Of a stretch of DNA of 26,669 bases, positions 1-18,649 are shown one piece after another. The notes under the pieces were generated by a model. The model did no database searches, was not told the DNA's origin, and saw nothing but the letters and a program-made list of their open reading frames with translations. The stretch lies in the IMG/VR virus record IMGVR_UViG_2734482780_000007. One strand, given 5' to 3'. The position numbers and the translations under genes are program-made. Source of the stretch: a virus (Duplodnaviria > Heunggongvirae > Uroviricota > Caudoviricetes). Every line of letters begins with the position of its first letter. The stretch's first letter is position 1.

Positions 1-591
1 ATGTCTCGAATTTTTGCTTACTGTCGGATATCAACGCTGGATCAGACCACCGAAAATCAACGCCGGGAAATCGAAAGTGCAGGTTTTAAAATCAAACCTC
101 AGCAAATAATCGAAGAACACATTAGCGGCTCAGCAGCAACCAGTGAGCGTCCTGGTTTTAACCGGTTGCTTGCTCGCCTGAAATGTGGTGATCAATTGAT
201 TGTGACAAAACTGGATCGCCTTGGTTGTAATGCAATGGATATCAGGAAAACAGTGGAACAACTGACCGAAACAGGTATCAGAGTGCATTGCTTAGCATTG
301 GGGGGCATTGACCTGACCAGTCCAACAGGAAAAATGATGATGCAAGTAATTTCAGCAGTCGCTGAATTTGAACGAGACCTTTTACTTGAACGCACTCATT
401 CCGGGATAGTAAGAGCCCGGGGCGCAGGGAAACGTTTTGGTCGACCACCTGTGTTAAATGAAGAACAGAAACAGGTGGTATTCGAACGAATTAAGTCAGG
501 TGTAAGTATAAGTGCCATTGCCCGGGAATTCAAAACCTCGCGGCAAACCATTTTAAGAGCCAAAGCAAAACTTCAGACACCTGACATATAA
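1..591 (+). CDS. pinQ: Serine recombinase / DNA invertase (Pin/Gin/Hin family), 196 aa
   Basis: N-terminal catalytic-Ser motif (YCRISTLDQ) and C-terminal HTH typical of Hin/Gin/Pin invertases; sits next to tail fibre genes. Confidence 0.93.
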
Positions 592-688
592 AAAATAATC
601 TCGGTGTGAGATGCTTTACGTCTTCCAAGCCACCTTCCTTGCCGTAAATGGAAAGATACATCTAATTATAGAATTTATATGTTTTACC

Positions 689-1264
689 CTACGGCAGTGC
701 TGGCCATTCAATATCCTGTGCAGTTGACGTATCAACACGGTTCAGCAATACCCGATACTTTTTCCATGCTTCCAGCAACGAGATTTCTTCCTCCGTTGCA
801 ATTTCCAGATCTGCAGCATCCTGAAGCGGCGCAATATGCTCACTGGCTACCTGCATCAGGCTGTTTTTTGTTTCTTCCGCCTCCCGGATCCGGAACAGTT
901 TTTCTGCTTCCGTATCCTTCACCCAGGCTGTGCCGTTCCACTTCTGATATTCCCCTCCCGGCGATAACCAGGTAACATTTTCCGGTAACGGACCGAGTTC
1001 AGAAATAAATAACGCGTCGCCGGAAGCCACGTCATAAACCGTTTTACCCCGATGATCTTCAACGAGATGCCACGATGCCTCATCACTGTTGAAAACAGCC
1101 ACGAAGCCTGCCGGAATATCTGGCGGTGCAATATCGATACTGTTTGCTGGCAGACCTGTATGAGGCGGAATATATGCGTCACCTTCACCAATAAATTCAT
1201 TAGTTCCGGCCAGCAGATTATAAATTTTTATGGTCCGTGGTTGTTCACTCATTCTGAATGCCAT
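689..1264 (-). CDS. tfaQ: Tail fibre assembly protein (lambda Tfa-like), 191 aa
   Basis: Near-identical to lambda Tfa ([26 protein letters not shown]...); start ATG overlaps the stf stop (TAATG). Confidence 0.93.
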
Positions 1265-4017
1265 TATGCAAGCCTCACAATATAGTTAAATGCGATGTTT
1301 TTGACGGTGTTTTCCGCGTTACCAGCAGCGTTAACGGTGATGGTATGTCCATGTGAACCAATCGCAACGGAGTGCGTATGAGCACCAATACCGACAGTAT
1401 GTGCGTGTGCACCTGCGCTTGCAGCAGTACCCGATACAGAGTGCGTATGAGCGCCTGCAGAAGAAGTGTTAACACTGTATTTAGAATAATCAGGTGATCC
1501 ACTTCCCGGAGCACCACTGGAACCACCTGAAACAAATGTCATCGAATGGGTATGTGCACCGGCTGAAGCAGCCGTACCGCTAACACTATGGGTATGCGCA
1601 CCAGTGTTATTCGTGGATTTAGTGCCGTAATCAAACGACGATGTGGTTTTCGTCCCCAAATCCGTACTGGATACGCTGGCGCTGTGGGTGTGTGATTTAA
1701 TGCCGTCCTGTTCCTGAGACAATACGGCTCGATCACTGGCGGGCTTGCCCTTAATCGTCCAGCCACGCATATCAGGGATCACGCCTGACGGATAAGCGGC
1801 TGCAAGTTTCGGGTAAGCAGATTTGTCAAAAGTCTGCCCCTGCATCAGGGCATAACCAGACGGAACGGTATCTGATGGCCACGGGATTGGTGCACCGACT
1901 GGATAAAACTCTGCAGGAGGATGAGCCGAGGTGTAAAGCTGCGCCCACGGCGACCAGTTTGCGTCGGTCGTATCCCGTCGTGAACGAATAAATGCCGGAG
2001 CATGAGCACCGCTTGTACCACTCCAGCCGATGAGTAACTCACCTTCGCCAACGGCTGTCATCCCTTTCAGGTGAATGATATTTCCATACGCTGTTGGATA
2101 TCCGTTGTTATACACCTCGTATAACTCAAGACCTGTTGCCCCCTGCGTATTGTCTGTCAGCGCGGTTACCCGACCTTTTGAAGACAGATTAACTGATGAT
2201 ACTGCTGTTCCACCTGACGGTAACGCCCCGATCTCTGATGCCGTTGGCTTATTTCTGGAGTTATAGTCCCTTCGCCAGCCAGGTGAATAATCTGTTCCGT
2301 GATTAATATAGGTAAACTGGGCGTTAGTTGTTCCACCACCAGTGGAGGTGGTCGGTGTGGTAATGCGGATCGTCATCGCTGACTTTATCCCCATTACTTC
2401 AATGACAGCTCCGGCGAGATGAATATTACCGCAGCCAGTATCAGTAATGATTTTATTATTGCCATAAGACCAGGAACCCTTGCACATCCAGTATGGATGG
2501 TTAAATGCTCCCTGAGAATCCAGCCACTCGATAAACTGTGCAGTCGTCCAGTTTCCTGTTGTTGTGCTTACTGACCCACCGAAGGCACGGCAGGCACCAA
2601 TATTTTTCGTAAAGGTGTCTTTGCCAGGGATATCCGCACCGTTCTGATCTTTCTGCAGACGTTTCTCAGCATTGTCATTGGCTGCTTTTACTGCCTTTGG
2701 CGTTGCCGCCAGCGTTTCAGACGTGCTGTTGGTCGCGCTGCTTAGCTGGATTATCCCTTTCTGTGCTGTCGTTGCATCCTGTGCGGTGTATTTCCCGTTA
2801 GCCAGGTCATACGCGGCCTTAACGGCTTTTGGCGTTGCCGCCAGTGACTCGGAAGTGCTGTTGGTCGCACTGCTGAGCTGTACTATCCCCTTTTTCGTCG
2901 TGCTCGCATCCTCAAGCGCCACGGCGGATGCAATATCCTCTGCCCGTTTTGCCGCTGTCTCAGCGCGCGTTGCTGCAGATTCCGCCGTACTTTTGCTCTG
3001 AGCTGCTGCCGTCGCACTGCCAGCTGCCTCTGTCGCCTTCGTGGATGCCGTCGTGGCGCTACCCTTCGCTGCTGACGCCTGTCTGGTCGCCTCATCTTTT
3101 GAAGCAGACGCAGATGATGCCGATGACGACGCCGAACTGGCTGACGATGCGGCAGCCGTTTTTGAGGATTCTGCGCTGGTTTCCGACGCTTTCGCGTTCG
3201 TTTCGGATGTCTTCGCTGCGGAAGCAGACCTCGCTGCTGCGCTGGCTTGTTCAGTGGCTTCGCCAGCCTTCGTTGTGGCTGTTGAAGCAGACGATGCGGC
3301 GCTTTCTGCCGATTTTCCGGCGGCGGTGGCACTGGCTGAGGCCTGCCCGGCACTTGTTGACGCTGCACTGGCAGACGACGCAGCCGCTGTTTTTGAGCCT
3401 GCCGCAGCCGAGGCGCTCTGTCCCGCTGCCGTTTCAGAAGACCTGGCGTTCGTCTCTGACGTTTTTGCCGCCTTCGCGGAATTTCCTGCCGCTGTTGCCG
3501 AGGAAGCTGCGCTACTGGCGCTCGAGGATGCGTTCGTTTCTGATGATTTTGCCGCCTCTTTTGAAGCCGCCGCATCCCGGGCTGAGGTGGCAGCTTCTGA
3601 CGCTTTCGTAGTCGCGGTGGATGCAGAAGTGGCTGCTGATTGTTGTGACGCTGCAGCATTCGTTTCTGACGTTTTCGCGGCACTGGCACTGGTAGCTGCC
3701 GCGCTTTTTGAGGACTCTGCAGCGGCAGCACTTTTTGATGCTTCAGTGGCCTTTGTTGATGCCGTTCCTGCGCTGGAAGTCGCTGACTGAGCCGACGACG
3801 CGGCCTGTCCGGCTGACGTGCTGGCTGCGCGTGCTGAGCCTGCAGCATCAGTCGCATGGGTTTCGGCATACCATCTTATAACGGCGGCAGAGTCATAAAG
3901 CACCTCATTACCCTTGCCACCGCCTCGCAGAACGGGCATTCCCTGTTCCTGCCAGTTCTGAATGGTACGGATACTCGCACCGAAAATGTCAGCCAGCTGC
4001 TTTTTGTTGACTTCCAT
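1264..4017 (-). CDS. stfQ: Side tail fibre protein fused in frame to the N-terminal ~52 aa of terminase small subunit Nu1 (917 aa chimeric ORF)
   Basis: First ~52 residues match lambda Nu1 N-terminus ([46 protein letters not shown]...), then continues as lambda Stf-like sequence ([18 protein letters not shown]...), the [31 protein letters not shown] repeat and a His-rich C-terminus. Confidence 0.9.
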
Positions 4018-4194
4018 TGTTCATTCCACGGCCAAAAACAGAGAAAGGAAACGACAGAGGCCCAAAAGCTCGTTTTCAGCACCTGTCGTTTCCTTTCTTT
4101 TCAGTGGGTATTTTAAATAAAAACATTAAGTTACGACGAAGAAGAACGGAAATGCCTTAAACCGGAAAATTTTCATAAATAGCGAAAACCCGCG

Positions 4195-4206
4195 AGGTCG
4201 CCGCCC
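4195..4206. other. cosN cohesive-end site (12-nt GGGCGGCGACCT on the minus strand) with flanking cosB-like sequence
   Basis: Minus-strand sequence GTTACGGGGCGGCGACCTCGCGGGTTTTCGCTATTTATGAAAATTTTCCGGTTTAAGG matches the junction of the lambda genome ends, immediately upstream of the Nu1 start. Confidence 0.8.
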
Positions 4207-4405
4207 CGTAACCTGTCGGATCGCCGGAAAGGACCCGCAAAATGATAATAATTATCATCTGCATGTCACAACGTGCATCTACGCCATCAAACCACGTCAA
4301 ATAATCAATTATGACGCAGATATCGTATTAATTGATCTGCATCAACTTAACGTAAAAACAACTTCAGACAATACAAATCAGCGACACTGAATACGGGACA
4401 ACCTC

Positions 4406-4639
4406 ATGTCAACGAAGAACAGAACCCGCAGAACAACAACCTGCAACATCCGCTTTCCTAACCAAATGATTGAACAAATTAACATCGCTCTTGAGCAAAA
4501 AGGGTCCGGGAATTTCTCAGCCTGGGTCATTGAAGCCTGCCGCCGGAGACTGTGCTCAGAAAAAAGAGTTTCTTCTGAAGCAAACAAAGAAAAGAGTGAC
4601 ATTACTGAATTGCTCAGAAAACAGGTCAGACCAGATTGA
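4406..4639 (+). CDS. ynfO: Small hypothetical protein, 77 aa (YnfO-like)
   Basis: ORF in moron block between cos and the lysis genes; weak SD. Confidence 0.6.
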   Translation: MSTKNRTRRTTTCNIRFPNQMIEQINIALEQKGSGNFSAWVIEACRRRLCSEKRVSSEANKEKSDITELLRKQVRPD

Positions 4640-4696
4640 AGCAATTTAGATAATCGTGCAGACTACGCCCCCTCATATCACATGGAAGGTTTATCT

Positions 4697-5107
4697 ATGG
4701 ATCAGGTAGTCATTTTTAAACAAATATTTGATAAAGTTCGAAACGATTTAAACTATCAATGGTTTTATTCTGAGCTAAAACGTCACAATGTCTCACATTA
4801 CATTTACTATTTAGCCACAGAGAATGTTCATATTGTATTAAAAAATGATAATACAGTGTTATTAAAGGGCCTAAAAAACATTGTGTCTGTCAAATTTTCA
4901 AAGGATAGGCATCTTATAGAAACGACCTCTAATAAGCTGAAATCCAGAGAGCTCACATTTCAGGAATACAGAAGAAACCTTGCTAAAGCAGGAGTTTTTC
5001 GGTGGGTTACAAATATCCACGAACAAAAAAGATATTACTATACCTTTGATAATTCATTACTATTTACTGAAAGCATCCAGAAAACTACACAGATCTTACC
5101 ACGCTAA
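4697..5107 (+). CDS. ydfO: DUF1398-family protein, 136 aa (YdfO-like)
   Basis: ORF with GGAAGG SD 7 nt upstream of the ATG at 4697; a hairpin follows the stop. Confidence 0.8.
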
Positions 5108-5258
5108 ACCATAACGTCCGGCTTCTCTCACTCCTGAGCCGGACTGCATTGGTTTAATAAAAACCATCAACAATTGTGATTTAGATATTCGGAACCATTC
5201 AAATATAACAAAACCCCGTAAAAACGAGGTTTATGGATAAATTTTATTATTGAATACA

Positions 5259-5435
5259 TCAGATTAAATTAATCTTGACATCATAGCTTTCAAGACCCGT
5301 CATTTTTTCCCGTGCGGTAAACTGAATACTGGTAACTTCTTTCCCGGTCTTTTTCTTAAGTTCAATAATTTTTTTTGTTATATATTCAGAAATATCTGCT
5401 TCTGCTTTTGTTTTTAAGTTTTCAATATTCATCAT
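5259..5435 (-). CDS. gnsB: GnsA/GnsB-family small protein, 58 aa
   Basis: Translation MMNIENLKTKAEADISEYITKKIIELKKKTGKEVTSIQFTAREKMTGLESYDVKINLI; hairpin plus T-run terminator just downstream on the minus strand (about 5216-5237). Confidence 0.85.
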   Translation of the reverse strand: MMNIENLKTKAEADISEYITKKIIELKKKTGKEVTSIQFTAREKMTGLESYDVKINLI

Positions 5436-5603
5436 TTCCTCTTTTAGTCTGTTATGACTTTCCAGTTACACAGTAAGTCGATTATATGGTGCAAACGTGT
5501 AAAAGATAAGATGAAACATCGCAATAATCAACATACGATAGTCTAAATTTTACACAAACAGACAAAGAAAATTTTCCTGAATTATCAATACAATAGCATC
5601 AAA

Positions 5604-5834
5604 TCAACTCAAGAGCCTTATTGCTGCTTCCAGAATTTCTTCTGAAGTAACATGTCGATCCGCGGCTACATAAATGACTTTATGATCTCCGGTCAGAGAT
5701 GGAAACCCTGCGGCCATTACAGTAAGGTGTGTTTTTTCGCCATTTGGATATTCACGCATGATGGTGTTAACTCCAGTCATCGCTGGCACTACCACTGCAG
5801 GTTCAGAGTTAAAAAAAACTATGATTTTTTTCAT
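5604..5834 (-). CDS. YmcE/YnfN-like small protein, 76 aa from the first ATG (the ORF track uses an upstream TTG)
   Basis: ORF adjacent to gnsB and cspI; no clear SD; begins right after a minus-strand terminator. Confidence 0.45.
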   Translation of the reverse strand: MKKIIVFFNSEPAVVVPAMTGVNTIMREYPNGEKTHLTVMAAGFPSLTGDHKVIYVAADRHVTSEEILEAAIRLLS

Positions 5835-5877
5835 GATGTTACCGTAGTATGTGAGTATCCATCGAATAGATACCAAG

Positions 5878-5898
5878 CAAAAAAGCTCCCGAAGGAGC
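5878..5898 (-). terminator. Rho-independent terminator (GCTCC-CGAA-GGAGC followed by a U-run on the minus strand)
   Basis: GC hairpin followed by six T on the minus strand, downstream of cspI. Confidence 0.55.
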
Positions 5899-6105
5899 CT
5901 TCATTTTCACTTTTTTAAATCCAACGACAGACGGCTGGCATTTAAGTATTGTGAAATATTATCAAATGTAATCATCATTGATTTACAAAAGATACATTTT
6001 GCCCCGAAAGGATTCATGTCAGAAACATCAAAAGATGATGTTCTATACTGGGAACCATGACAACACGGGCATCTAAAGTGAATATGGTTTGTAATATTGT
6101 CTACC

Positions 6106-6318
6106 TCAAAGCGCCACTACATGAACAGCGGCAGGACCTTTAGGTCCGTTCTCAATACCAAATTCAACTTCCTGATTCTCAGTTAATGTTTTGAAATCGT
6201 TGCTCTGAATTGCTGAGAAATGGACAAACACATCTTTGCTGCCATCTTTCGGCGTGATGAAACCAAAACCTTTTTCAGGGTTAAACCATTTCACTAAACC
6301 AGTCATTTTGTTAGACAT
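6106..6318 (-). CDS. cspI: Cold-shock protein, CspA family, 70 aa
   Basis: [23 protein letters not shown]... cold-shock domain with RNP motifs; long AT-rich 5' leader. Confidence 0.95.
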
Positions 6319-6681
6319 AATTATTACCTTTTGAAGAAATTAGCCCTTGGGCAGAATGGTCCGAAAAAAAATATCAGAGAGAAAAACCAACAAGGAAATC
6401 TCAAGAGGTACAAATAATAAAATTATAACAATGACTGCTTCAGATAAATTTGTAACAAACCAGAACACCATTAACGCATGATTAACCACCCATAGCAAGG
6501 ATTACTTTTGTAAAGAAAAACACAGCAATGAAAGAATAGCTTTATTTATTAATAATAACGTGTCATTCTGATTAAGACCTTTTATCTTACCCTTAAGATT
6601 TCAGGAATTTTGGCTCATGGAAGAGTCCTTTTTATTTAAATTTTACATTCCGCGATGTAAATGTTCCGATTTAATATTACC

Positions 6682-7705
<1,024 letters not shown>

Positions 7706-7709
<4 letters not shown>

Positions 7710-8017
7710 ATATATTTATGATGAGGACGCTCGTGCTTATTGGCAGGATTTTCAATCTTAAAGGAGTACTGATGCTGCAGATAAGACTCAACTTTTTCTG
7801 ACAATTTTTCTGCTACTTCCAGGAAGACTTGCCGGACGCTCCTTCTGGCTGCTGCCTCATAAAACTCCAGCGCAGCTCCTTCAACACGGTCCATGGCGAC
7901 ATCCAGGTCAAAAATTTCACCGTCAAAGCGTTCTTTGTCCTGTAAGGCTACAGTTACCGTAACTTTATTCTCAAAATTACGGACTCCTTTCACAACCAGT
8001 TCATAGTCTTGAGTCAT
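7706..8017 (-). CDS. ydfR: Hypothetical protein (DUF1327-like), 103 aa, sitting between holin and endolysin
   Basis: ORF translationally coupled to the endolysin (overlapping stop/start). Confidence 0.8.
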
Positions 8018-8021
8018 TGGA

Positions 8022-8237
8022 TTACTCTCCTCTCGCAGCCTTACGCCTGTCTTCTTTAATCTTGAAATAAAGATTTGTCAGATACGTCAGCAGGCCAAAA
8101 ACCAGGCTACCCAGCACACCGATTGCAGCCCACTGTGACGGAGTTACTTTATCGAGTAACTGCAATGCCCAGAAACCAGCATTACCCGCCGATGTGCCAT
8201 AGGCAACACCTGTTGTTAACTTATCCATTGATTTCAT
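8022..8237 (-). CDS. essQ: Pinholin (phage 21 S-like class II holin) with dual start motif MKSM, 71 aa
   Basis: [71 protein letters not shown] resembles S21; GGTGAGG SD upstream; two TM segments. Confidence 0.88.
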
Positions 8238-8456
8238 ATCCTCACCCCGATGTACACGGATGGTGCAATATGTTTGAAAAGATCGGAGTCTACGGGGTAG
8301 TTTTGACAGCACACGTTGTTCTCAACGGCGCTAAAAAAACATACACATTAAAAATGTGGGTAATTATTTTGAAAGAAAGTCATATATAAAATAATAATAC
8401 GAGAAATGTTTTCATATTTAGTGTACTGTATACGGCCATTTATACAGGAAAAGCCT

Positions 8457-8627
8457 ATGTCAGAACGTAAAAACTCAAAATCACGCCGTAATTATCTCGT
8501 TAAATGTTCCTGCCCAAACTGCACCCAAGAGTCAGAACACAGTTTTTCAAGAGTACAAAAAGGTGCCCTTTTGATCTGCCCTCATTGCAACAAAGTATTC
8601 CAGACAAATCTTAAAGCTGTAGCCTGA
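8457..8627 (+). CDS. Small zinc-ribbon-like protein, 56 aa (CxxC ... CxxC)
   Basis: MSERKNSKSRRNYLVKCSCPNCTQESEHSFSRVQKGALLICPHCNKVFQTNLKAVA; AGGAAAA SD upstream; hairpin terminator downstream. Confidence 0.55.
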   Translation: MSERKNSKSRRNYLVKCSCPNCTQESEHSFSRVQKGALLICPHCNKVFQTNLKAVA

Positions 8628-8684
8628 TTGATTTTATTAGTAACAAGTATTTTTTATATTTTAATAATATATTTAAAGCAGATA

Positions 8685-8710
8685 ATAAAAAACCCGCCTG
8701 AGCGGGTTTG
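8685..8710. terminator. Bidirectional rho-independent terminator (AAACCCGC-CTGA-GCGGGTTT)
   Basis: GC-rich hairpin flanked by an A-run on one side and T on the other; downstream of cspB (minus) and of the zinc-ribbon ORF (plus). Confidence 0.6.
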
Positions 8711-8990
8711 AGATTGTGGTGCTTTTTGTGGGAGTCATCCACTTACGCACTTTGTTTTGCCATGCCAGCAGTTAGCTTCTGCTGTAAAACTATTCATGCA
8801 GCAAACCTGCACTTCACCACAATGGTTAGCATACTTTTCCTGATTAAGATTTTGCCAAATATGCTAGCCATTGTTTCATGTATTGGACCTCCTTACTTTT
8901 TATTAAAGAGATCCAATATTCACTACTCTGTCCGTATCTCTACTCAGGCATCAGCCTTCTTCGTTATCGTATACAGACGAGCGATGAATT

Positions 8991-9206
8991 TTAATCAGTA
9001 ATGATGACATTTGCTGCTGCAGGACCTTTAGCACCACTCTCTATAGAGAAGGTAACCTTTTGACCTTCAAATAAGGTTCGATAATTATCATTCTGAATCG
9101 CAGAAAAATGCACAAACACATCTTTACTACCATCAACAGGAGAAATAAAGCCGAAACCTTTATCAGCGTTAAACCATTTTACTAAACCAGTCATTTTATT
9201 TGACAT
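8991..9206 (-). CDS. cspB: Cold-shock protein, CspA family, 71 aa
   Basis: [23 protein letters not shown]... Confidence 0.95.
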
Positions 9207-9506
9207 TCTACATTCCTTAACTTGAGCCTTTCGGCATAAATGGTTTGCATAACAGAAACGACTTCGTACTTAATTGGAGAGACTCAAAGAAGGAATAAGT
9301 GAATAACACCTGAAATGAGAACTGCTTTAGTAAACTACTTCGTATATCGTCTGTTCTTCAAACCGACGCAATCATTAACGCATAGTTGAACATATGAAGC
9401 AATGTTTATTTTAGACATCCAGCCATCTTCAACCCCATCAAAAAACTATAGCTTTCTTCAGGAACGTGTGTATAGTGCGCCAAGTTATCAGTATTAAGGA
9501 ATTTTT

Positions 9507-9719
9507 TTGTCCCGTAAAATGACAGGAATTGTCAAAACCTTTGACGGCAAAAGCGGCAAGGGTCTTATCACCCCATCCGATGGTCGTATCGATGTCCAGC
9601 TTCATGTCTCAGCGCTCAATCTCCGCGATGCAGAAGAAATTACCACCGGATTACGCGTGGAATTTTGCCGGATAAATGGTCTGCGTGGCCCTTCAGCTGC
9701 CAATGTTTACCTTTCATGA
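9507..9719 (+). CDS. cspF: Cold-shock protein, CspA family, 70 aa
   Basis: [23 protein letters not shown]...; divergent from cspB. Confidence 0.93.
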
Positions 9720-9773
9720 GCTATATTAAAGCTTTAATTTCAGGCCCCATCGGATCACACATGGAGAGTTTTT

Positions 9774-9863
9774 ATGAATAACCCCGTCTGTCTTGATGAC
9801 TGGTTGATTGGCTTTAAAAGCTTATGCTGTACTTTGGCCGTAATAGCTCTGCTAATAATATAA
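9774..9863 (+). CDS. Possible small hydrophobic peptide, 29 aa
   Basis: [29 protein letters not shown] with GGAG SD 7 nt upstream; unverified. Confidence 0.25.
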
Positions 9864-10010
9864 TAAGCAGACTCATTGTGTTTAGGGACATTGTACTGGA
9901 AGAAAACATTTTAAACATCAGGCAAATAACCAAGTCACCAGCTAAATAATAAGTTAACAGACATGAGTCCCGGGATGAGATTCAACATTACCATTGCCCC
10001 ATTTAAAGCA

Positions 10011-10046
10011 CAAAACCCGCTCATCAGCGGGTTTTCTACTTTTTCT
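10011..10046. terminator. Bidirectional rho-independent terminator (AAACCCGC-TCATCA-GCGGGTTTT); candidate tR' for the late promoter
   Basis: Perfect GC hairpin with T-runs on both strands, about 100 nt downstream of the Q stop. Confidence 0.65.
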
Positions 10047-10075
10047 TAACGTCGGGTATACAAAGCCCATCGTTG

Positions 10076-10104
10076 AAAAAATTTTATCCATATTTTTTGA
10101 AAAA
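10076..10104 (-). promoter_or_regulatory. Candidate late promoter (pR'-like): TTGCAT-N17-TAAAAT on the minus strand
   Basis: Sigma-70-like hexamers with 17-bp spacer directly downstream of the Q gene and upstream of the terminator hairpin. Confidence 0.35.
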
Positions 10105-10140
10105 TGCAAACATCATGTCGCCATCTTCAGCAAAAATCAT

Positions 10141-10893
10141 TTATCTCGTCACCTTCCTCAATTGCGCTTCCGCGTATGCTTCTTCCTGCCAGCACTTTGT
10201 TACCAGTTTACCAATGACGTCCGCATACCCCTTATACCACTGATAATCGGTCAGGTCTGGTACCAGCTTCTGGACATGACGTCGTGCCAGCGTGGTCGGT
10301 AAACGACTAAACCGGTTTCCATTACAACGCCCACAAATCTTATATACCGGTACGCCATGAAACCGGGTTCTTTTTTCATCCAGAACAATCCCTTTACCCT
10401 TACACCCTCTGCACGCTGTGCTGGCTTCGCCCTTACCATGGCAATGCTGACATAGTTCCTTCACCCATTCTTCCTTGATTACAGATTCCCCGCGTCTGTA
10501 GTGTTTCACCACTTCGCGCAATACATTATAAAATCCCGTACCTGAACAATGCTCACAGCGAGCCTTACTTGCCGCAGACCTGGAGTAATCAGCAAAGGCA
10601 AAACTCACGAGGTAAGGAATAATCTGTAACCGGATTTCTTCACTCAATTTGTTCAATGTCGGGTTATCCAGTGCCATCGCGTAATTTAGCAGGCCTTCAA
10701 TCGCAAACTGAGGGTCCTGAACACCAACTTTTGCCAGAAATAAGGCCAACCCAAGTGGTGCTTTCGACTGCACCATCCCCTGCGCTGCCATTACATCCGT
10801 AATTGTTAAACAACCGGTGCCTGTCGCTGGAGCGTCATCGCTCAATTTTGGAGATTTTGGGGAGTAATATTTTGGTAAGGCTTCAAGGTTCAT
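10141..10893 (-). CDS. quuQ: Late-gene antitermination protein Q, 250 aa
   Basis: Q-family protein with Cys-rich zinc-binding region (CEHCSGTG ... CQHCHGKG ... CRGCKGKG ... CGRCNG); GGAG SD before the ATG at 10893. Confidence 0.9.
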   Translation of the reverse strand: MNLEALPKYYSPKSPKLSDDAPATGTGCLTITDVMAAQGMVQSKAPLGLALFLAKVGVQDPQFAIEGLLNYAMALDNPTLNKLSEEIRLQIIPYLVSFAFADYSRSAASKARCEHCSGTGFYNVLREVVKHYRRGESVIKEEWVKELCQHCHGKGEASTACRGCKGKGIVLDEKRTRFHGVPVYKICGRCNGNRFSRLPTTLARRHVQKLVPDLTDYQWYKGYADVIGKLVTKCWQEEAYAEAQLRKVTR

Positions 10894-10906
10894 GCTCGTT
10901 CTCCAC

Positions 10907-11956
10907 TTACGCCAGTACGCCAATTGCCAGCGCGCGATCGATAAAACGAAATATCAGCTCCAGTTGGGAGCCATACTTATCTTCAAATGCCACTGTATCC
11001 GTATGCAGCTCGTTGTGATGCTTTCTGCACAAAGGCAACACAAAGAGATCATGTGCTTTTGTTCCCATTCCGCCCTGCCCGTGACCAATCAGATGATGCG
11101 GATCGTCGGCTGGCATACCGCAGCAAGCACACGGCTGTGTCTTAACCCAACGTGTGTATTTCTCCTTAACCCAGCGGCGACGTTTAGGCAGCTTCATGAA
11201 AGATTCCGGAGACTCTGGATCAACGGTGATGCTTACCACCGTCTTTTCCTGTGGTGATTTTTGTTGCTGGTGGGCGTAAGGCAACGGTGCAAGATTTTTT
11301 GTGCGTTGTTTCAATATGCTGGTGGCGGTCTGCTCTCCCGGTACGATGTCGCTTTCGCGGTACACCGAGCAGATTTTTTCCGCTGGTAATCCCAGCGAAC
11401 GACGCGATACAGCCTCAGGTAGTGCATCCACCACCTGATTGCAGACCGCCCACCAGGATAATTCAGCCAAAGATAATTCCCGCTCCTGCGTACCGCTTAT
11501 TGCGTGACGGATGACGTCAATCACCCATGCTGTCAGATTTTGTTGAGCAAGCAGCTCCAGTGATTCCGATGTCTGGTCACGCAGTTGGTTGTCGCAGTGC
11601 CAGCACAACACCATTGCGCCGGTACCATAACGGTGAATGACTGTTTCAGTGTGATGGTAATCGCCATTAGGCCACTGGCAGGATGTAACATGACGTAATA
11701 GCCAGTCGGACAATGCGCCAACGCCGCCAGCAGCACGAATCACCCGTTCGTTACTAAAAAACGGCAGCAATGTTTTGTCTTCCGCCAGCGGCTGGCGAAC
11801 GGCAGGAACGACTCCGGATGGCAGATTACGCATGCTTTTTGGTTCCGGTTCCACCAGCACTCGAGGATTATGAAATATCTGTATGGATTCACGGCCCGGC
11901 TTAAGGACCACCAGCCCAAGCTCAGGCACCAGAACAGGTCTAAGTAATACCCGCAC
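10907..11956 (-). CDS. ydfU: DUF968-family protein with HNH-like Cys/His motif, 349 aa (GTG start)
   Basis: GTG start preceded by GGAGG SD and immediately after the rem stop; C-terminal CACCG ... PHH ... LCRKHHNELH motif. Confidence 0.8.
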   Translation of the reverse strand: MRVLLRPVLVPELGLVVLKPGRESIQIFHNPRVLVEPEPKSMRNLPSGVVPAVRQPLAEDKTLLPFFSNERVIRAAGGVGALSDWLLRHVTSCQWPNGDYHHTETVIHRYGTGAMVLCWHCDNQLRDQTSESLELLAQQNLTAWVIDVIRHAISGTQERELSLAELSWWAVCNQVVDALPEAVSRRSLGLPAEKICSVYRESDIVPGEQTATSILKQRTKNLAPLPYAHQQQKSPQEKTVVSITVDPESPESFMKLPKRRRWVKEKYTRWVKTQPCACCGMPADDPHHLIGHGQGGMGTKAHDLFVLPLCRKHHNELHTDTVAFEDKYGSQLELIFRFIDRALAIGVLA

Positions 11957-11957
11957 G

Positions 11958-12236
11958 TTACCTCCAGATCCGTTGCTGGAAAGTGCGGGACGCACGTGGT
12001 GGGCGTTCGGAATAAGGCAGCCTGACAGAGATTATCCAGTGCCGATAGTCGAGACTGAGAGCTTTCTTAACCTCGAACCCGCGCCTGCGGTAAGAATGAA
12101 TCAGCCATTCGGCCTGTTCTGCAGTGCATGGAGGGTGCTGGAACCATTCAGACTTGAATGCGTGAGAATACCGCCCGTGCGTGCAGGCAAGAACGGGCGA
12201 ATTATCAGAATTGTAATATTTTGCGTTGCGTGCCAT
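11958..12236 (-). CDS. rem: Small hypothetical protein (Rem-like), 92 aa
   Basis: ORF with GGAG SD; directly upstream of ydfU. Confidence 0.7.
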   Translation of the reverse strand: MARNAKYYNSDNSPVLACTHGRYSHAFKSEWFQHPPCTAEQAEWLIHSYRRRGFEVKKALSLDYRHWIISVRLPYSERPPRASRTFQQRIWR

Positions 12237-12302
12237 CGGTTTTCTCCGGTGGCACGGTGTTACTCAGCGGGAGTTCAGCCCCGCGCAAGATTGTAGATGA
12301 GT

Positions 12303-12554
12303 TTATTCTCCTGAAAAAGCAGAAAAGCCAGCTTTTATTCCGATCTCTTTCAATGCCTGTAATGAAGAGACAAACTCACCTTCGCGCAAGATAAATCCGT
12401 CCGTGACCCGAGCATCCACAAAATTAATTAACGCAGCCCCATTCTTTCGCAAACACATAATGCGGTAATGACTAACAAGATTTCCATTTTCAACGCACAC
12501 AGCATAGAGGCCATCTTCACAAAAAATTTTACGCAGTTCTTCGATGTTCATCAT
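12303..12554 (-). CDS. Hypothetical protein, 83 aa, with its own promoter-like and SD signals
   Basis: MMNIEELRKIFCEDGLYAVCVENGNLVSHYRIMCLRKNGAALINFVDARVTDGFILREGEFVSSLQALKEIGIKAGFSAFSGE; GGAAGGA SD 5 nt upstream; TTGAAG-N18-TAGAAT at 12633-12662. Confidence 0.6.
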   Translation of the reverse strand: MMNIEELRKIFCEDGLYAVCVENGNLVSHYRIMCLRKNGAALINFVDARVTDGFILREGEFVSSLQALKEIGIKAGFSAFSGE

Positions 12555-12670
12555 CAGAATCCTTCCGGATAATTAGCTCTCCCCTTTAAGGGACCATCCC
12601 TCTTATCCCTGCGCGCTACTTAAGTATTTTTGATTCTATTCCGGCACCGTCCAGAACTTCAAACGCGTTG

Positions 12671-12702
12671 AAAATAAAAACAAAAACCCGCCGAAGCGGG
12701 TT
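12671..12702 (-). terminator. Rho-independent terminator of the relBE-hokD operon
   Basis: CCCGC-TTCG-GCGGG hairpin followed by TTTTTGTTTTTATTTT on the minus strand, about 70 nt after the hokD stop. Confidence 0.8.
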
Positions 12703-12770
12703 AAGTGCGGGTGCGTTGAGGATGCCTGCCACATCAGAGGTGGCGAGGGATTTCTCCCCCGCCGGGTCTC

Positions 12771-12926
12771 TTACTCCTCAGGTTCGTAAGCTGTGAAGAC
12801 AGCGACCTCCGTCTGGCCGGTTCGGATTCGTACCTCGCAGAGGTCTTTCCTCGTTACCAGTGCCGTCACTATGACGGTTAAACAGATGACGATCAGGGCG
12901 ATTAACATCGCCTTTTGCTGCTTCAT
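12771..12926 (-). CDS. hokD: Hok-family membrane toxin (RelF/HokD), 51 aa
   Basis: Translation MKQQKAMLIALIVICLTVIVTALVTRKDLCEVRIRTGQTEVAVFTAYEPEE. Confidence 0.92.
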   Translation of the reverse strand: MKQQKAMLIALIVICLTVIVTALVTRKDLCEVRIRTGQTEVAVFTAYEPEE

Positions 12927-12997
12927 AGCCTGCTTCTCCTGTCAACGCAAAGCAGAAGTGTCACCTTCGGTGCGAAACAGAGATGTCATGCTTTGGT

Positions 12998-13285
12998 TCA
13001 GAGAATGCGTTTGACCGCCTCGCTATATACTTCCGAGCGTTCTCTTTTCCCAACAGAAATCACGAAAACGACAACTTTCTCGTCTATAACCTGGTATACA
13101 AGGCGATAGCCTGAAGACCGGAGCTTAATCTTGTAACAATCAGGCATACCACGGAGCTTGTTTGCTTCAATCCGGGGTGACTCAAGTACTTCAACCAGCT
13201 TCTTTTTCAACTGTTCACGTACCGTCGAGCCCAGCTTTCGCCATTCCTTTAGTGCCCGCTCGTCAAAATCCAGAAAATACGCCAT
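12998..13285 (-). CDS. relE: RelE mRNA interferase toxin, 95 aa
   Basis: MAYFLDFDERALKEWRKLGSTVREQLKKKLVEVLESPRIEANKLRGMPDCYKIKLRSSGYRLVYQVIDEKVVVFVISVGKRERSEVYSEAVKRIL; start overlaps relB stop. Confidence 0.95.
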   Translation of the reverse strand: MAYFLDFDERALKEWRKLGSTVREQLKKKLVEVLESPRIEANKLRGMPDCYKIKLRSSGYRLVYQVIDEKVVVFVISVGKRERSEVYSEAVKRIL

Positions 13286-13524
13286 CAGAGTTCATCCAGC
13301 GTCACACGTACTGGCTTAGGATTACGAAGCCGTTCTTTCACTATCTCCACAAGTTCAGCATCTTCATCACTCAGGAGTGTCTGTTTGAACGGCAAGCGTT
13401 CATTGTCAGCGATATACTCGAGCATGAGACGAAGCGCTTCAGAAGGAGTTACACCCATTTTTTCAAGCGCGGCGTAAGAACGCGCTTTAAGTTCATCGTC
13501 AATACGCAGGTTAATGCTACCCAT
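13285..13524 (-). CDS. relB: RelB antitoxin, 79 aa
   Basis: MGSINLRIDDELKARSYAALEKMGVTPSEALRLMLEYIADNERLPFKQTLLSDEDAELVEIVKERLRNPKPVRVTLDEL. Confidence 0.95.
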   Translation of the reverse strand: MGSINLRIDDELKARSYAALEKMGVTPSEALRLMLEYIADNERLPFKQTLLSDEDAELVEIVKERLRNPKPVRVTLDEL

Positions 13525-13535
13525 GTCTTACACCT

Positions 13536-13561
13536 CTTGTAATTACAAATGTCATTACAAG
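13536..13561. promoter_or_regulatory. relO-like operator: tandem TTGTAAT/ATTACAA inverted hexads overlapping the relB promoter/SD region
   Basis: CTTGTAATTACAAATGTCATTACAAG 12-37 nt upstream of the relB ATG. Confidence 0.6.
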
Positions 13562-13854
13562 TATCGCACTACAACATGCTTAGGGCAAGTCACGAAGGAA
13601 GTCAGAAAGTAGTCGTAAGAACGGTGATCACTGTCCGCTTTGTGCCAGGAGCAGCCATTGCTAAGTCCATCCTGTATTGTGCAGGTCAGCTCGTTTTTAA
13701 AGAGTCCGGCCATCATCTTACTGGTACAGACACCATATACTTTGTGACGGTCAGGCTACATATGCACAACTCAACTTATTCATCTATTTTTTGCTTTAGC
13801 ATGTCAGTGTTGCTTTCTCGTCGGCGGGTGAGCGGTGACCTGACCTGTCGATAA
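13549..13854 (+). CDS. Doubtful ORF, 101 aa (YdfV-like), opposite strand across the relBE promoter region
   Basis: Open frame only; low-complexity composition, no clear SD; may not be expressed. Confidence 0.2.
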   Translation: MSLQVSHYNMLRASHEGSQKVVVRTVITVRFVPGAAIAKSILYCAGQLVFKESGHHLTGTDTIYFVTVRLHMHNSTYSSIFCFSMSVLLSRRRVSGDLTCR

Positions 13855-14006
13855 AGGAACGTAGCACGTTTTATGCAACACCCGCATGCGGCAGAAAATT
13901 ATTGCCGAACGTTTACCCCTGTCAACAAGCTTTACTTTCTGAGGCGCGCCAGCCCGCGAGGAAAACAATCTGAACATCAAACAATTAATGACACAAGAAA
14001 TACGAT

Positions 14007-14033
14007 TAAAGATTTTTTTGTGCATGCCGATAG
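14007..14033 (+). promoter_or_regulatory. Sigma-28 (FliA) class 3 flagellar promoter: TAAAGATT-N11-GCCGATAG
   Basis: Matches the TAAAGTTT-N11-GCCGATAA consensus at 7/8 and 7/8, 24 nt upstream of flxA. Confidence 0.7.
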
Positions 14034-14056
14034 TGCTTTTTTAAAAGGAGAAATCT

Positions 14057-14389
14057 ATGTCTGTCACAATTCAGGGAAATACCTCAACCGTTATTTCAAA
14101 CAACTCCGCCCCGGAAGGAACATCAGAAATAGCCAAAATCACAAGACAAATTCAGGTGCTGACTGAAAAGCTTGGGAAAATCTCATCGGAAGAGGGGATG
14201 ACGACACAGCAGAAAAAAGAAATGGCTGCATTGGTACAGAAGCAAATTGAAAGCCTCAGGGCTCAACTGGAGCAGTTGTTAAGGCAGCAGGCAGAGAAAA
14301 AGAATAAAGACGCGACAGTTCAGCCTGATAAAAAAGAAGAGAAAAAAGACGATACAAATACCGCTGGCACCATTGATATTTACGTCTAA
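14057..14389 (+). CDS. flxA: FlxA, FliA-regulated protein, 110 aa
   Basis: MSVTIQGNTSTVISNNSAPEGTSEIAKITRQIQVLTEKLGKISSEEGMTTQQKKEMAALVQKQIESLRAQLEQ...; AAGGAG SD. Confidence 0.93.
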   Translation: MSVTIQGNTSTVISNNSAPEGTSEIAKITRQIQVLTEKLGKISSEEGMTTQQKKEMAALVQKQIESLRAQLEQLLRQQAEKKNKDATVQPDKKEEKKDDTNTAGTIDIYV

Positions 14390-14403
14390 GTGACAGCCGT
14401 ATT

Positions 14404-14427
14404 GTGGCCCTCATCGGGCCACTTTTC
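14404..14427 (+). terminator. Rho-independent terminator after flxA (GTGGCCC-TCATC-GGGCCAC-TTTT)
   Basis: 7-bp GC stem followed by a T-run, 15 nt after the flxA stop. Confidence 0.6.
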
Positions 14428-14825
14428 GCCATCAGCCTTTTCTTTAAAGACATATTATCTTTGTATCATTTCTGATAGTTAACATTACAAGATATAAGTA
14501 ATGGACGCACTCCCAATTAGTCTATTTAAATCGCCACGAGTTTAACTGACAACCCATGATCAATTATGAATTGCAACTATTTCTGTAGTCACTTTTGTGG
14601 GGACAGTCCACAAAACTGCCAACTTCCGCTTCTTGCTCTTAGCGGACATTAGCATAGGCTATTTACCATAACGCCTCATTACGCGCACCGCCCAGACTGA
14701 CTCAGCGCGTTTCTGGCATATCCCCGGTAAAACAAGTAACAAACCACCCGAAAATGAACACCAGAAACGCGACTTAAGAATCTACCCTATGAATGGATAT
14801 GCACTCAACCGAATCGATCTTGGTT

Positions 14826-15815
14826 TCAATCTTTTTTATCGGGATCAGGCTTCTTTTTAGGTAACTTCGGGGGCTTAACTTGCTGATGACTTTGCGTTCG
14901 GCGCGTAAGCCAGGGATGGTCAGCTTTAGGTTTAACATAGTATTTTGAGCGTAAATCAATACGGGCATTATCCACTCGTTCATGGACACTCTTTTCATCA
15001 TCCAGTGGTATAGGCTCCGGGCCATCAACATACTTTTCCCAGCCCAGCGCTTTCCCGTCATACAGAACGTTAATTTCACCGTCAAAGTTCTCGCATACAG
15101 TAACAACCGAATGCCTAAGTCGATATCCCCGGCCCTCACTGCGTACCTGAAACGCACTGCTTGTGTACTGGAAAGTGAGATTTTTAGACAGAACGCGCTT
15201 CGCCTGTAGGCTGAAGATATAACCCAGTTCCTCTTCAGAATGGTGCACATCAAGATGAGCATTATCAGTAGTACGAGGCGACGTAGCGAACCGGTTGTTA
15301 TAGGCTTCAATAAAGGTCGGCAACCATGCATTTGCTGTTTCAATATCACTGATATTCTGAAGCCGCATTTCTTTGACCAGCCTGTCCTGTAGTGTCTGAT
15401 TGGCGCGCTCTACCCGCCCTTTTGCCTGCGGGCTGTTGGCATGGATTGGCTCGATGCCCAGTGTCTTTATCGCACGAGTGAACTGGGTCAGCTCACCTTC
15501 CCGCTCTGGGTTATTTACCCTGAATATACTGTGTCTATCAGAGTAGAGAGCGAGCGGTACGCCATGATCATTAAGGTAACCCCGGAGGGTTTCCATGTAA
15601 GCCCGGGTTGTTTCAGCAGGCACAAAACGCAACGCCATCAACGCACTGGTGGCATCATCAATGAAAACGATCAGTGTACATCTGGGGCCTCGATTTTCAA
15701 ACCAGTCATGAGGTGAGCCATCAATCTGGATCAGTTCACCGTAAGATGGTCGTCGCATGCGACGTTGATATATACGGGCAATTTTACGACGGCGTTCACG
15801 CCATACCCCCCTCTT
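14826..15815 (-). CDS. Transposase catalytic part (rve/DDE integrase core), frame open from 15815; first ATG at 15758
   Basis: IQIDGSPHDWFE ... IVFIDDATSALMA ... HANSPQAKGRVERANQTLQDRL; joins the N-terminal ORF frame if one G of the G6 run (15806-15811) is removed. Confidence 0.75.
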   Translation of the reverse strand, partial: KRGVWRERRRKIARIYQRRMRRPSYGELIQIDGSPHDWFENRGPRCTLIVFIDDATSALMALRFVPAETTRAYMETLRGYLNDHGVPLALYSDRHSIFRVNNPEREGELTQFTRAIKTLGIEPIHANSPQAKGRVERANQTLQDRLVKEMRLQNISDIETANAWLPTFIEAYNNRFATSPRTTDNAHLDVHHSEEELGYIFSLQAKRVLSKNLTFQYTSSAFQVRSEGRGYRLRHSVVTVCENFDGEINVLYDGKALGWEKYVDGPEPIPLDDEKSVHERVDNARIDLRSKYYVKPKADHPWLTRRTQSHQQVKPPKLPKKKPDPDKKD

Positions 15816-16167
15816 CTATCATCCACTTTCTGAGAGTTTCAACGGATAAAGATAAACCGTGTATCTCGCGCAATTTTTCGCACGCAAACGTAGGTCCAAA
15901 ATCAGCGTAACGGCCTTTGAGGAGTGAAATTACTGTTGCTCTGAATTCAGTAGAAAAGGAATTATTAGGACGCTTTCCACGTCGGTGGGAAACCAGACCA
16001 GAAGGCCCTTCATTTCTATACCGTTGCACCAGACGTTTAACCTGCCGAATAGAAATGCCAATGCGTGCCGCAGCTTGTTCCTGAGTAATATGTCGATTAA
16101 TTGACTCCTGAATAATCTGAAGTCGGTGGAGTTCCTTATGACTCATCGTAACAGTTTCTTTGGTCAT
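15796..16167 (-). CDS. Transposase N-terminal part (HTH domain), 123 aa, ends at a stop just after a G6 run
   Basis: MTKETVTMSHKELHRLQIIQESINRHITQEQAAARIGISIRQVKRLVQRY... Confidence 0.75.
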   Translation of the reverse strand: MTKETVTMSHKELHRLQIIQESINRHITQEQAAARIGISIRQVKRLVQRYRNEGPSGLVSHRRGKRPNNSFSTEFRATVISLLKGRYADFGPTFACEKLREIHGLSLSVETLRKWMIEEGGMA

Positions 16168-17833: not shown

Positions 17834-18190
17834 TTAAAAAATCAGAACGCCGTGCGGCCTCAACACCCGAAAAGCTTCTTTAAATCTCTGTCGCAAATCA
17901 TCACGCCAGGCATCTTTATTCAGCCGTCCATATTTCTTTCCCATCCAGGCGTTATCACCAACACGCTCAAGATGCGGAGGGTCTAATACAACCATCGAAA
18001 AAGATGCGTCTGCAAATGATAATGCACGAAAATCTGCGATAATGTCAGGGCTGATAATCAAGCGTCTCCCATTGCGTAATGTGTATCCTTCTTTTCTGAT
18101 ATCGCTGAATATCGCCCGTTTGTCAGACTTATCGAACCAGAACATGCGGCTGCCACAGCACATATCAAGAATGGTTGCCGGTGCACTCAC
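17834..18190 (-). pseudogene. C-terminally truncated SAM-dependent DNA amino-methyltransferase, 118 aa remnant
   Basis: Motif I ILDMCCGS and motif IV VVLDPPH present, ORF stops soon after; start ATG overlaps the upstream ORF stop (ATGA). Confidence 0.55.
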
Positions 18191-18561: not shown

Positions 18562-18649
18562 CTGTCATTTAATTTTTTCCCGCTCTTCTTGTGTAAAAAC
18601 TTTTGCCACCAGTCCCCCTTAAAATTACCTCATGACCTGAAATCAACAC

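Follow-up and report, generated by a model that had tools for sequence, protein, structure and literature searches.

How an open reading frame (ORF) of 917 codons came to begin as the terminase small subunit Nu1 and to continue as a side tail fibre (Stf), and whether its product could do anything, is the question raised by this locus. The window, the whole stretch of 26,669 nt that was analysed, carries the ORF at 1264..4017 on the minus strand. We conclude, with a probability of roughly 0.85, that it is the scar of a recent single deletion in a Qin-type lambdoid prophage of E. coli, arising from microhomology-mediated illegitimate recombination.

Composition of the chimeric ORF and its junction

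As shown by Pfam and PDB matches, the ORF consists of Nu1 residues 1-52 followed by Stf residues 143-1007. The nu1-derived part (3861..4017, minus strand) comprises nt 1-157 of nu1, that is, 52 codons and 1 nt, and encodes only the winged helix-turn-helix DNA-binding domain. The initial annotation had assigned the first ~52 residues to Nu1, and this was borne out by a Phage_Nu1 match at the N-terminus (PF07471, E 1.3e-29), by matches of residues 1-55 to the solved Nu1 DNA-binding domain (PDB 1J9I and 7LW0, E ~3e-28) and by nu1 DNA homology up to 3861.

The stf-derived part (1264..3862, minus strand) covers codons 143-1007 of its parent, a Qin-type Stf of 1007 aa. The repeats of the shaft, the collar domain and a receptor-binding tip like that of gp37 are all present, with the cognate tfa directly downstream. 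Pfam detected the tail-fibre families Phage_fiber_2, Collar and Phage_fiber (PF03406, PF07484 and PF03335), and the C-terminus matched the T4 gp37 tip (PDB 2XGF, E 4e-86). The tail-attachment domain (phage_tail_N, PF08400), which occupies residues 1-134 of the parent Stf, is missing. A switch into an internal part of lambda Stf had been proposed. The sequence is indeed internal to Stf, but the parent is the Qin-type protein and not lambda Stf; lambda's own stf covers just 35% of the Stf part, at 86.5% identity.

Alignment to the parents placed the breakpoint at 3861/3860, the upper edge of the range predicted earlier (about 3849-3861). It lies inside a 2-nt AA microhomology (3861..3862, minus strand) common to both parents (nu1 ...GCCGAAA|GGG and stf ...GGCAA|CCCATG), where nu1 nt 157 is joined to stf nt 426. 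On the nu1 side, window positions 4400..3861 were 96-99% identical to the lambda, DE3 and PhiR42_1 sequences of cos and nu1 nt 1-157, with the homology ending at 3861. On the stf side, positions 3862..1264 were 100% identical (2599/2599) to the 3' 2,599 nt of intact stf genes. Codon 53 of the chimera is A|CC, and both parents stand at codon position 1 there; the frame was therefore probably kept open by chance, for which the prior is ~1 in 3.

Extent and origin of the deletion

Two complete relatives were compared with the window: phage PhiR42_1 (48.7 kb) and L011, an undeleted prophage that occupies the same chromosomal locus. Window positions 16092..3861 matched L011 6426..18655 at 99.65% and positions 3862..1 matched L011 38320..42181 at 99.95%. 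The two were colinear, and the sole gap of 19,666 bp contained 20 annotated morphogenesis genes. PhiR42_1 was likewise colinear except for one 19,814-bp gap. The whole genes lost are A, W, B, C, D, E, FI, FII, Z, U, V, G, T, H, M, L, K, I, J and lom. From nu1 the 3' end is also gone, and from stf the first 142 codons, with the tail-attachment domain of Stf. The single deletion that had been postulated, from early nu1 into stf with loss of all head and tail genes and the frame kept, agrees with this colinearity and its one gap. The DNA ends were joined at the AA overlap, with a loss of ~19.7 kb. The deletion appears to be recent, because the Stf part shows no difference from intact stf and 36 of the 37 PhiR42_1 genes checked outside the gap are intact in the window.

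The prophage is of the Qin type. Its gene order is Q, lysis genes, cspI, gnsB, ydfO, ynfO, cos, nu1', stf', tfaQ and pinQ, the morphogenesis genes are missing, and its ydfK/ydfJ locus was read from assemblies that equal the window, or nearly so, where the two overlap (at most 2 nt different in 10 kb). The identical ORF and junction were found in at least three NCBI draft assemblies (GCA_016112795.1, GCA_000819245.1 and GCA_000797575.1). The contigs that carry the junction are 78-439 kb long with consistent flanks, and two of the loci (L008 and L009) reach the ydfK-ydfJ flank. The junction was not found in 5,426 complete E. coli genomes, nor in JGI metagenomes, IMG/VR or GTDB representative genomes. 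An exact-sequence look-up of the 917-aa protein in a collection of 15 billion proteins gave no match, though the gene index did match; a homology search with the junction-spanning 118 aa returned other Nu1 variants and not the chimera itself. A literature search gave no description of this allele.

An improbable alternative is a two-step origin of the chimera or its formation by inter-prophage exchange. For example, a junction such as that of L002 (nu1 nt 455 :: stf nt 426) could have been followed by a 298-bp deletion in nu1 ending precisely there. The stf endpoints of the window and L002 are the same to the nucleotide, within the AA ambiguity, and a deletion between AA repeats would turn one junction into the other. 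However, L002 sits in a DLP12-type prophage at a different locus, and its stf allele is just 93% identical, with intact versions (99.7% identical to it) existing elsewhere, whereas the stf of the window shows 100% identity with Qin-type alleles as far as the junction. An intermediate at the Qin locus was not found among the complete genomes, and a second deletion ending at the first junction is no likelier than two independent hits at the same site.

Expression and possible function of the chimera

The chimera adjoins an intact cos, as had been claimed. The 12-nt cohesive end of cosN (GGGCGGCGACCT; 4195..4206, minus strand) is an exact match, and the R1/R2 terminase-binding repeats of cosB, with inverted 26-nt arms (4042..4098, minus strand), show no difference from PhiR42_1. 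Over the cos region and nu1 leader as a whole (4018..4400, minus strand), 4/383 nt differ from PhiR42_1 and 18/383 nt from lambda DE3. The leader and ribosome-binding region of the chimera would be the same as in working phages.

In lambda-type phages, nu1 is transcribed from the Q-dependent late promoter. The expectation that the chimera is expressed from a Nu1 promoter of its own was not upheld, as a scan gave 8 promoter-like matches against 11.9 expected from shuffled sequence. A late operon lies upstream of cos (6685..10893, minus strand) and encodes proteins 99-100% identical to those of PhiR42_1. On the same strand it contains intact genes for antiterminator Q (10144-10893), holin (8025-8237), lysozyme (7179-7709) and an Rz-like protein (6685-7179), together with ydfR. 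Judging from this arrangement, any transcript that includes the chimera is likely to come from this operon. The promoterless chimera would occupy the nu1 slot of a Q-dependent operon and would be transcribed only once the late genes of the prophage were switched on.

If translated, the fibre might still fold with the help of TfaQ. The tfaQ gene, for a tail fibre assembly chaperone, is located at 689..1264 on the minus strand, and its start overlaps the stop of the chimera. The product would lack the N-terminal tail-attachment domain, and the element would have no tail to which it could attach. It could not be expected to act as a terminase subunit either, because it has only the DNA-binding head of Nu1 and not the oligomerisation and gpA-binding parts. 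With no tail attachment, no tail and no terminase activity, the chimera probably plays no part in the life cycle of the phage. As in a working phage, genes for integrase, excisionase, immunity, replication, Q and lysis are present in the element and cos is intact, but virion genes are gone. Its packaging by a helper phage was considered and rejected: the prophage of ~27-28 kb would be too small as a monomer and too large as a dimer for the lambda cos-to-cos packaging window of 38-51 kb. Regardless of frame, lambdoid phages that enter the cell could still acquire cos and stf-tfa sequence from the locus by homologous recombination. Recombination of lambda with the K-12 Qin stf-tfa and with the DLP12 cos-nu1 has been shown experimentally (PMC3945230).

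The initial annotation had left the choice between a neutral scar and a selected way to keep stf-tfa expressed. The first fits the data; the second is very improbable. Under selection, the in-frame fusion would ensure continued translation of Stf' and TfaQ from the nu1 start, either as an expressed reservoir for tail fibre exchange or as a free receptor-binding fibre released on induction of a virion-less, lysis-competent prophage, blocking, e.g., OmpC-type receptors on sister cells. The 917 codons are fully open behind a native nu1 translation start, the intact tfaQ is translationally coupled to them, induction would both transcribe the ORF and lyse the cell given the intact Q, holin, lysozyme and Rz genes, and many defective prophages retain stf-tfa-pin modules. 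Against this, nothing has tested the ORF yet, because its Stf part is free of substitutions relative to intact alleles and only near-identical assemblies share the junction, so that selection has had no time to act or to show. With the event so recent, the open frame is no evidence of selection, and the junction is absent from the complete genomes.

The frames of other fusions gave the same answer. Besides the window, six independent Nu1 junctions were read at the DNA level (K-12 Qin, L002, L003, L004, L012 and L013), and the microhomology ranged from 0 to 5 nt across the seven. Another ~49 Nu1 fusions were found at the protein level among public proteins, with A, B, C, E, FI, Z, V, H, L, J, lom, stf and tfa as partners. 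In-frame junctions are not enriched: they made up 3/7 at the DNA level and 13/49 at the protein level, that is, 16/56 (~29%), matching chance. Out-of-frame Nu1::stf scars (K-12, L002, L004 and L013) last equally well, and rescue of stf-tfa by recombination needs neither translation nor an open frame (PMC3945230). A recent neutral accident is the most likely nature of the scar.

That the fusion is an assembly or sequencing artefact has practically no chance of being true because at least three separate NCBI assemblies, with long, consistently flanked contigs, carry the same 917-aa ORF and the same junction; a k-mer misjoin is impossible from a 2-nt overlap, closed genomes show comparable junctions, and nothing was found in its favour, the idea having been considered solely since the complete genomes lack the junction.

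Recurrent breakpoints and related Nu1 fusions

The survey indicated that deletion breakpoints recur at specific sites. Left endpoints recur in nu1 at GCCGAAA|GGG (codons 50-53; at least five fusions besides the window), at ACGAAAA|GC (codons 60-61; eight different partners) and at CTGATAC|CGGGG (nt 506-515; four partners). Right endpoints were also reused independently: the window and L002 have stf nt 426 in common, and two other fusions have one tfa codon in common. CC at the start of the retained right side is far commoner than expected. Since both breakpoints of the window are at recurrently used sites, deletion formation was not purely random and may involve a site preference or an enzyme. 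It is conceivable, if unlikely, that the loss of morphogenesis genes in lambda-like prophages is a site-preferring process of breakage and joining and not random decay. The recurrence is possibly due to a defined nuclease or protection boundary, such as the limit of a cos-bound terminase complex or a cut in stf at a site resembling cosN. If true, this boundary would explain why many cryptic prophages of E. coli end as cos-nu1 joined to stf-tfa.

Several specific mechanisms were examined and rejected. The serine recombinase gene pinQ (invertase family) is located at 1..591 on the plus strand. Paired 26-bp crossover sites of the Hin/Gin/Pin type (..AAACC NN GGTTT..) were not found near pinQ or flanking stf/tfa, and no inverted repeat brackets stf-tfa. 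The scan gave a single match with 3 mismatches, distant at 10701; chance alone would give 1.45. Deletion by Pin at quasi crossover sites was rejected because no such site lies near either breakpoint or within pin-tfa-stf, and the half-sites around the AA overlap are unlike the consensus. The stf site GGCGGCAACC equals the cosN core at 9/10 positions. A terminase cut there is a weak idea: the 23-kb region contains 5 equally good and 23 looser matches, the comparison was post hoc, and the predicted nick is ~3 nt off. Against a hairpin or cruciform, the parental sites folded no better as DNA than shuffled sequence, nu1 nt 455 being a mild exception (z = -1.75). No Chi site in either orientation was found from L011 15226 to the end of the locus, so Chi-limited RecBCD resection cannot explain the nu1 endpoints.

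By itself the scar is of little importance, as it adds another deletion allele to a well-known family of cryptic prophages. It offers an unusually clean view of the first step of prophage decay. Automated annotation would label the chimera 'phage tail protein'; chimeras with a Nu1 N-terminus are widespread and are best read as pseudogene scars, K-12 nohA being one of them.

Compared with lambda gpNu1, chimera residues 1-52 match the cosB-binding winged helix-turn-helix, with DNA ~96% identical to lambda, and the gene adjoins cos. The chimera lacks residues 53-181, which in gpNu1 hold the self-assembly and gpA-binding regions; these central and C-terminal regions are gone, gene A is deleted downstream, and the element has no gpA.

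Two undeleted phages of the Qin type, the prophage of strain CFSAN061762 (NZ_CP042901.1) and PhiR42_1 (PV340562.1, 48,668 bp), are 99.2-99.9% identical to the window and colinear on both sides of the junction, and the match to PhiR42_1 runs from the integrase gene to pin. Unlike the window, they carry a whole nu1, the genes from A to lom and an stf of full length (1007 or 1025 aa) with the tail-attachment domain.

Such scars are frequent in E. coli. A Nu1::Lom protein in strain L725, which is annotated as Ail/Lom, an in-frame Nu1::Stf in strain FG31-1 and Nu1::Tfa proteins also have an N-terminal Nu1 segment joined by deletion to a downstream late gene, some in frame. They differ from the chimera of the window in breakpoint, partner gene and prophage background (DLP12-type), and the 917-aa product is the longest such chimera seen.

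A close parallel is the cryptic prophage Qin of K-12, in which nohA/nohQ is followed by the stfQ pseudogene, tfaQ and pinQ. Both prophages share the ydfK-ydfJ side of the locus, the flanking cspI, gnsB, ydfO, ynfO and cos, and tfaQ and pinQ, and both carry a nu1-into-stf deletion with a 2-nt overlap. The initial annotation had contrasted separate nohQ and stfQ genes with the fused form. This contrast does not apply, as K-12 nohA is itself a Nu1::stf junction: the 189-aa NohA consists of Nu1 residues 1-176 and 13 unrelated residues, and the stf remnant has 233 codons. In K-12, unlike the window, nu1 nt 529 is joined to stf nt 2120, ~21 kb apart and out of frame. The two deletions are independent events, and neither allele can be derived from the other.

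Composition and parentage of the chimeric reading frame

The 917-aa ORF at 4017..1264 (minus strand) joins Nu1 to a side tail fibre. This reading and its coordinates, proposed in the initial annotation, were borne out by Pfam, by matches to solved structures and by base-by-base comparison with the parents. Phage_Nu1 was found at the N-terminus (E 1.3e-29), and the tail-fibre families Phage_fiber_2, Collar and Phage_fiber were also present. Residues 1-55 match the DNA-binding domain of lambda Nu1 (1J9I and 7LW0, E about 3e-28), the middle matches tail fibre S of phage Mu (8JU3), and the C-terminal 214 residues match the receptor-binding tip of T4 gp37 (2XGF, E 4e-86). The Stf part (1264-3862, minus strand) is a mosaic in which a lambda-like Ala/Ser-rich shaft is combined with the Mu S-like middle and the gp37-like tip. 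Several long ORFs of 109-328 aa overlap the GC-rich Ala/Ser-repeat stretch in other frames and on the opposite strand (2672-3869); they are by-products of repetitive composition, not genes.

Window 4400..3861, spanning cos and nu1 nt 1-157, had 96.3% identity with lambda/DE3 and 99.3% with phage PhiR42_1, and this homology block stopped exactly at 3861. Window 3862..1264 was 100% identical to the 3' 2,599 nt of the intact stf of several complete E. coli genomes. The match to lambda's own stf was partial, covering 35% of the Stf part at 86.5% identity. The attribution to a side tail fibre holds, but lambda Stf is not the parent; the parent is a 1007-aa Qin-type Stf.

At the junction the nu1 parent reads ...TATGCCGAAA/GGGATGC, the stf parent ...GAGGCGGCAA/CCCATGCGAC and the window ...TATGCCGAAACCCATGCGAC. 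Base-by-base comparison of the three placed the deletion junction at 3861/3860 (minus strand), with AA at 3862-3861 common to both parents. Because both genes are at codon position 1 there, the frame runs on through the junction, reading ...W Y A E / T H A T D....

Undeleted relatives and spread of the junction

An undeleted prophage (L011, strain CFSAN061762, NZ_CP042901.1) occupies the same chromosomal site as that of the window and shares its neighbours (cspI, gnsB, ydfO and ynfO to one side; tfaQ, pinQ, ydfK and ynfT to the other). The two aligned as two colinear blocks of 99.65% and 99.95% identity separated by one gap of 19,666 bp, which contains the 3' 389 nt of nu1, 20 complete genes (A, W, B, C, D, E, FI, FII, Z, U, V, G, T, H, M, L, K, I, J and lom) and stf codons 1-142. 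The lost codons include the entire phage_tail_N domain (parent residues 1-134, Pfam). The window was also colinear with PhiR42_1, a complete phage of 48,668 bp; the alignment ran from the integrase gene to pin with a single gap of 19,814 bp. The single gap against both relatives bears out the proposal of one in-frame deletion from nu1 into stf that removed the morphogenesis region. Outside the 19.8-kb gap, window 1-26669 and PhiR42_1 1065-47568 were 99.2-99.8% identical. The ΦR-named phages are a plaque-tested panel of lambda-related temperate phages (PMC13190303), to which PhiR42_1 would belong by its name.

Thirty-six of the 37 PhiR42_1 genes outside the gap were full length in the window, with 96-100% protein identity. 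Among them are integrase, excisionase, exonuclease VIII, DicA/DicC-type immunity genes, O, RelBE, HokD, Q, holin, lysozyme and an Rz-like gene. The sole disrupted gene, DUF977/LygF-like (18190-18609, minus strand), carries one in-frame stop relative to PhiR42_1. The intactness of these genes indicates that the window prophage is a working phage from which only the virion genes are gone, and that the deletion is recent.

The same 917-aa protein and the same 31-nt junction were found in three NCBI drafts (GCA_016112795.1, GCA_000819245.1 and GCA_000797575.1) on contigs of 78-439 kb, and two of these loci extend into the chromosomal flank ydfK-ynfT-ydfJ-ydfI. A sequencing error had been raised earlier as a possible origin of the fusion; the identical junction in three separate assemblies rules out an assembly artefact, and with 0-2 nt differences from the window across 6.6-10 kb, the carriers are close relatives. 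The junction was absent from 5,426 complete E. coli genomes, from GTDB (one genome per species), from JGI metagenomes and from IMG/VR, and is therefore a rare, young allele.

Expression, product and cos

The initial annotation had a Nu1 promoter driving the tail fibre. A promoter scan of window 600-8400 gave 8 matches against 11.9 expected in shuffled sequence, and so no evidence of such a promoter. Late genes of lambda type, nu1 included, are transcribed from a Q-dependent late promoter, across cos. Since the gene order from the lysis genes to nu1 is that of PhiR42_1 and the nu1 leader and start are unchanged, the chimera would be transcribed only when Q is made, i.e. on induction. Induction would also lyse the cell, since holin, lysozyme and the Rz-like gene match their PhiR42_1 counterparts at 100% identity. 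The prophage is thus likely to be inducible and lysis-competent, and incapable of making virions.

If made, the product would retain shaft, collar and receptor-binding tip, with the chaperone TfaQ at hand; it would lack the tail-attachment domain, and no tail would be present either. Its Nu1 part would comprise the DNA-binding domain but none of the assembly and gpA-binding regions. Judged by these domains, it would work neither as a terminase subunit nor as a fibre. The adjacent cos site is intact, as first described: cosN matched exactly (4195-4206), the R1/R2 repeats were present (4042-4098) and 4 of 383 nt differed from PhiR42_1. The gene pinQ (1-591) encodes a serine recombinase of the invertase family and is intact. 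Neither a crossover site of Hin/Gin/Pin type nor an inverted repeat bracketing stf-tfa (within 592-4017) was found, which leaves it no obvious invertible segment to act on.

Nu1 fusions, reading frame and recurrent breakpoints

Among the best 120 Nu1-N-terminal proteins of a public protein collection, 84 had non-Nu1 tails. Frameshifts inside nu1 accounted for 22 of these and deletion fusions for about 49, with A, B, C, E, FI, Z, V, H, L, J, lom, stf and tfa as partners. Thirteen of the latter were in frame, as were 3 of 7 DNA-level junctions, giving 16/56 (29%), near the one-third that chance predicts. The open frame of the chimera is therefore no sign of selection, and the suggestion that it was kept to express stf-tfa is not supported. 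The related suggestion, that the locus acts as a reservoir in tail-fibre exchange, is plausible for the DNA itself but does not account for the kept frame, since stf-tfa exchange is independent of an open reading frame. Recombination of lambda with K-12 Qin stf-tfa occurs at about 2x10^-6; that with DLP12 is about 100-fold more frequent, and half of the junctions sequenced there lie next to cos (PMC3945230). The chimera is a recent and rare scar, most likely a neutral one.

Five further junctions lie in complete genomes. Three DLP12-type loci join nu1 455 to stf 426 (L002, out of frame), nu1 515 to stf 196 (L003, in frame, 583-aa ORF) and nu1 103 to stf 372 (L004, out of frame). A Qin locus (L013) joins nu1 508 to stf 145 out of frame. 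In another prophage (L012, strain L725), nu1 510 is joined to lom 325 in frame, giving Nu1(1-169)::Lom(109-end) of 244 aa at 2646-3380. RefSeq names it 'Ail/Lom family outer membrane beta-barrel protein', an annotation trap, as the N-terminal 70% is terminase small subunit. This layout and annotation are listed in at least 14 complete genomes counting L012, the one in which the junction was mapped.

Several breakpoints recur. The stf endpoint of the window is the same to the nucleotide as that of L002 (window 3861-3862; L011 38320-38322; L002 5398-5399), although L002 is a different prophage type whose stf allele is only 93% identical and has intact copies elsewhere (99.7%). The nu1 site of the junction, codons 50-53 (L011 18653-18655), is also the left end of at least five other fusions, with L, J, B and, twice, stf as partners. 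Codons 60-61 (ACGAAAA/GC, L011 18678-18682) form the left end for 8 different partners and nu1 nt 506-515 (L011 19004-19013) for 4. Two Nu1::Tfa fusions have one tfa endpoint in common and different nu1 endpoints. Of 28 junctions, 12 have CC at the start of the retained right-hand side, where 6-11% would be expected (binomial P about 2e-5, post hoc test). The DNA searches needed both flanks close together and 90% identity clustering hides late nu1 breakpoints; such sampling bias affects part of the pattern, but leaves the pile-up at single codons unaccounted for.

As causes, Chi sites were unsupported, as were hairpins (by a folding test) and Pin crossover sites, none having been found. The parental stf breakpoint (L011 38313-38324, destroyed in the window) sits in AGGCGGCAACCC, which resembles cosN GGGCGGCGACCT at 9/10 core positions. 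A causal role is likewise unsupported; with five such core matches in the 23-kb late region, the resemblance may be coincidence. Of the whole finding, the recurrent-breakpoint pattern alone might open a new direction.

K-12 Qin carries a deletion of its own, independent of that in the window. Its ends, nu1 nt 529 and stf nt 2120, overlap by TA, and the junction is out of frame; neither allele is derivable from the other. The annotated 'DNA-packaging protein NohA' of K-12 MG1655 (189 aa, L006 5945-6514) is accordingly a deletion chimera, consisting of Nu1 residues 1-176 and 13 unrelated residues that stf encodes, out of frame, from nt 2120 on. Nu1 deletion fusions are a known and common kind of prophage scar, of which the 917-aa chimera is a new allele.
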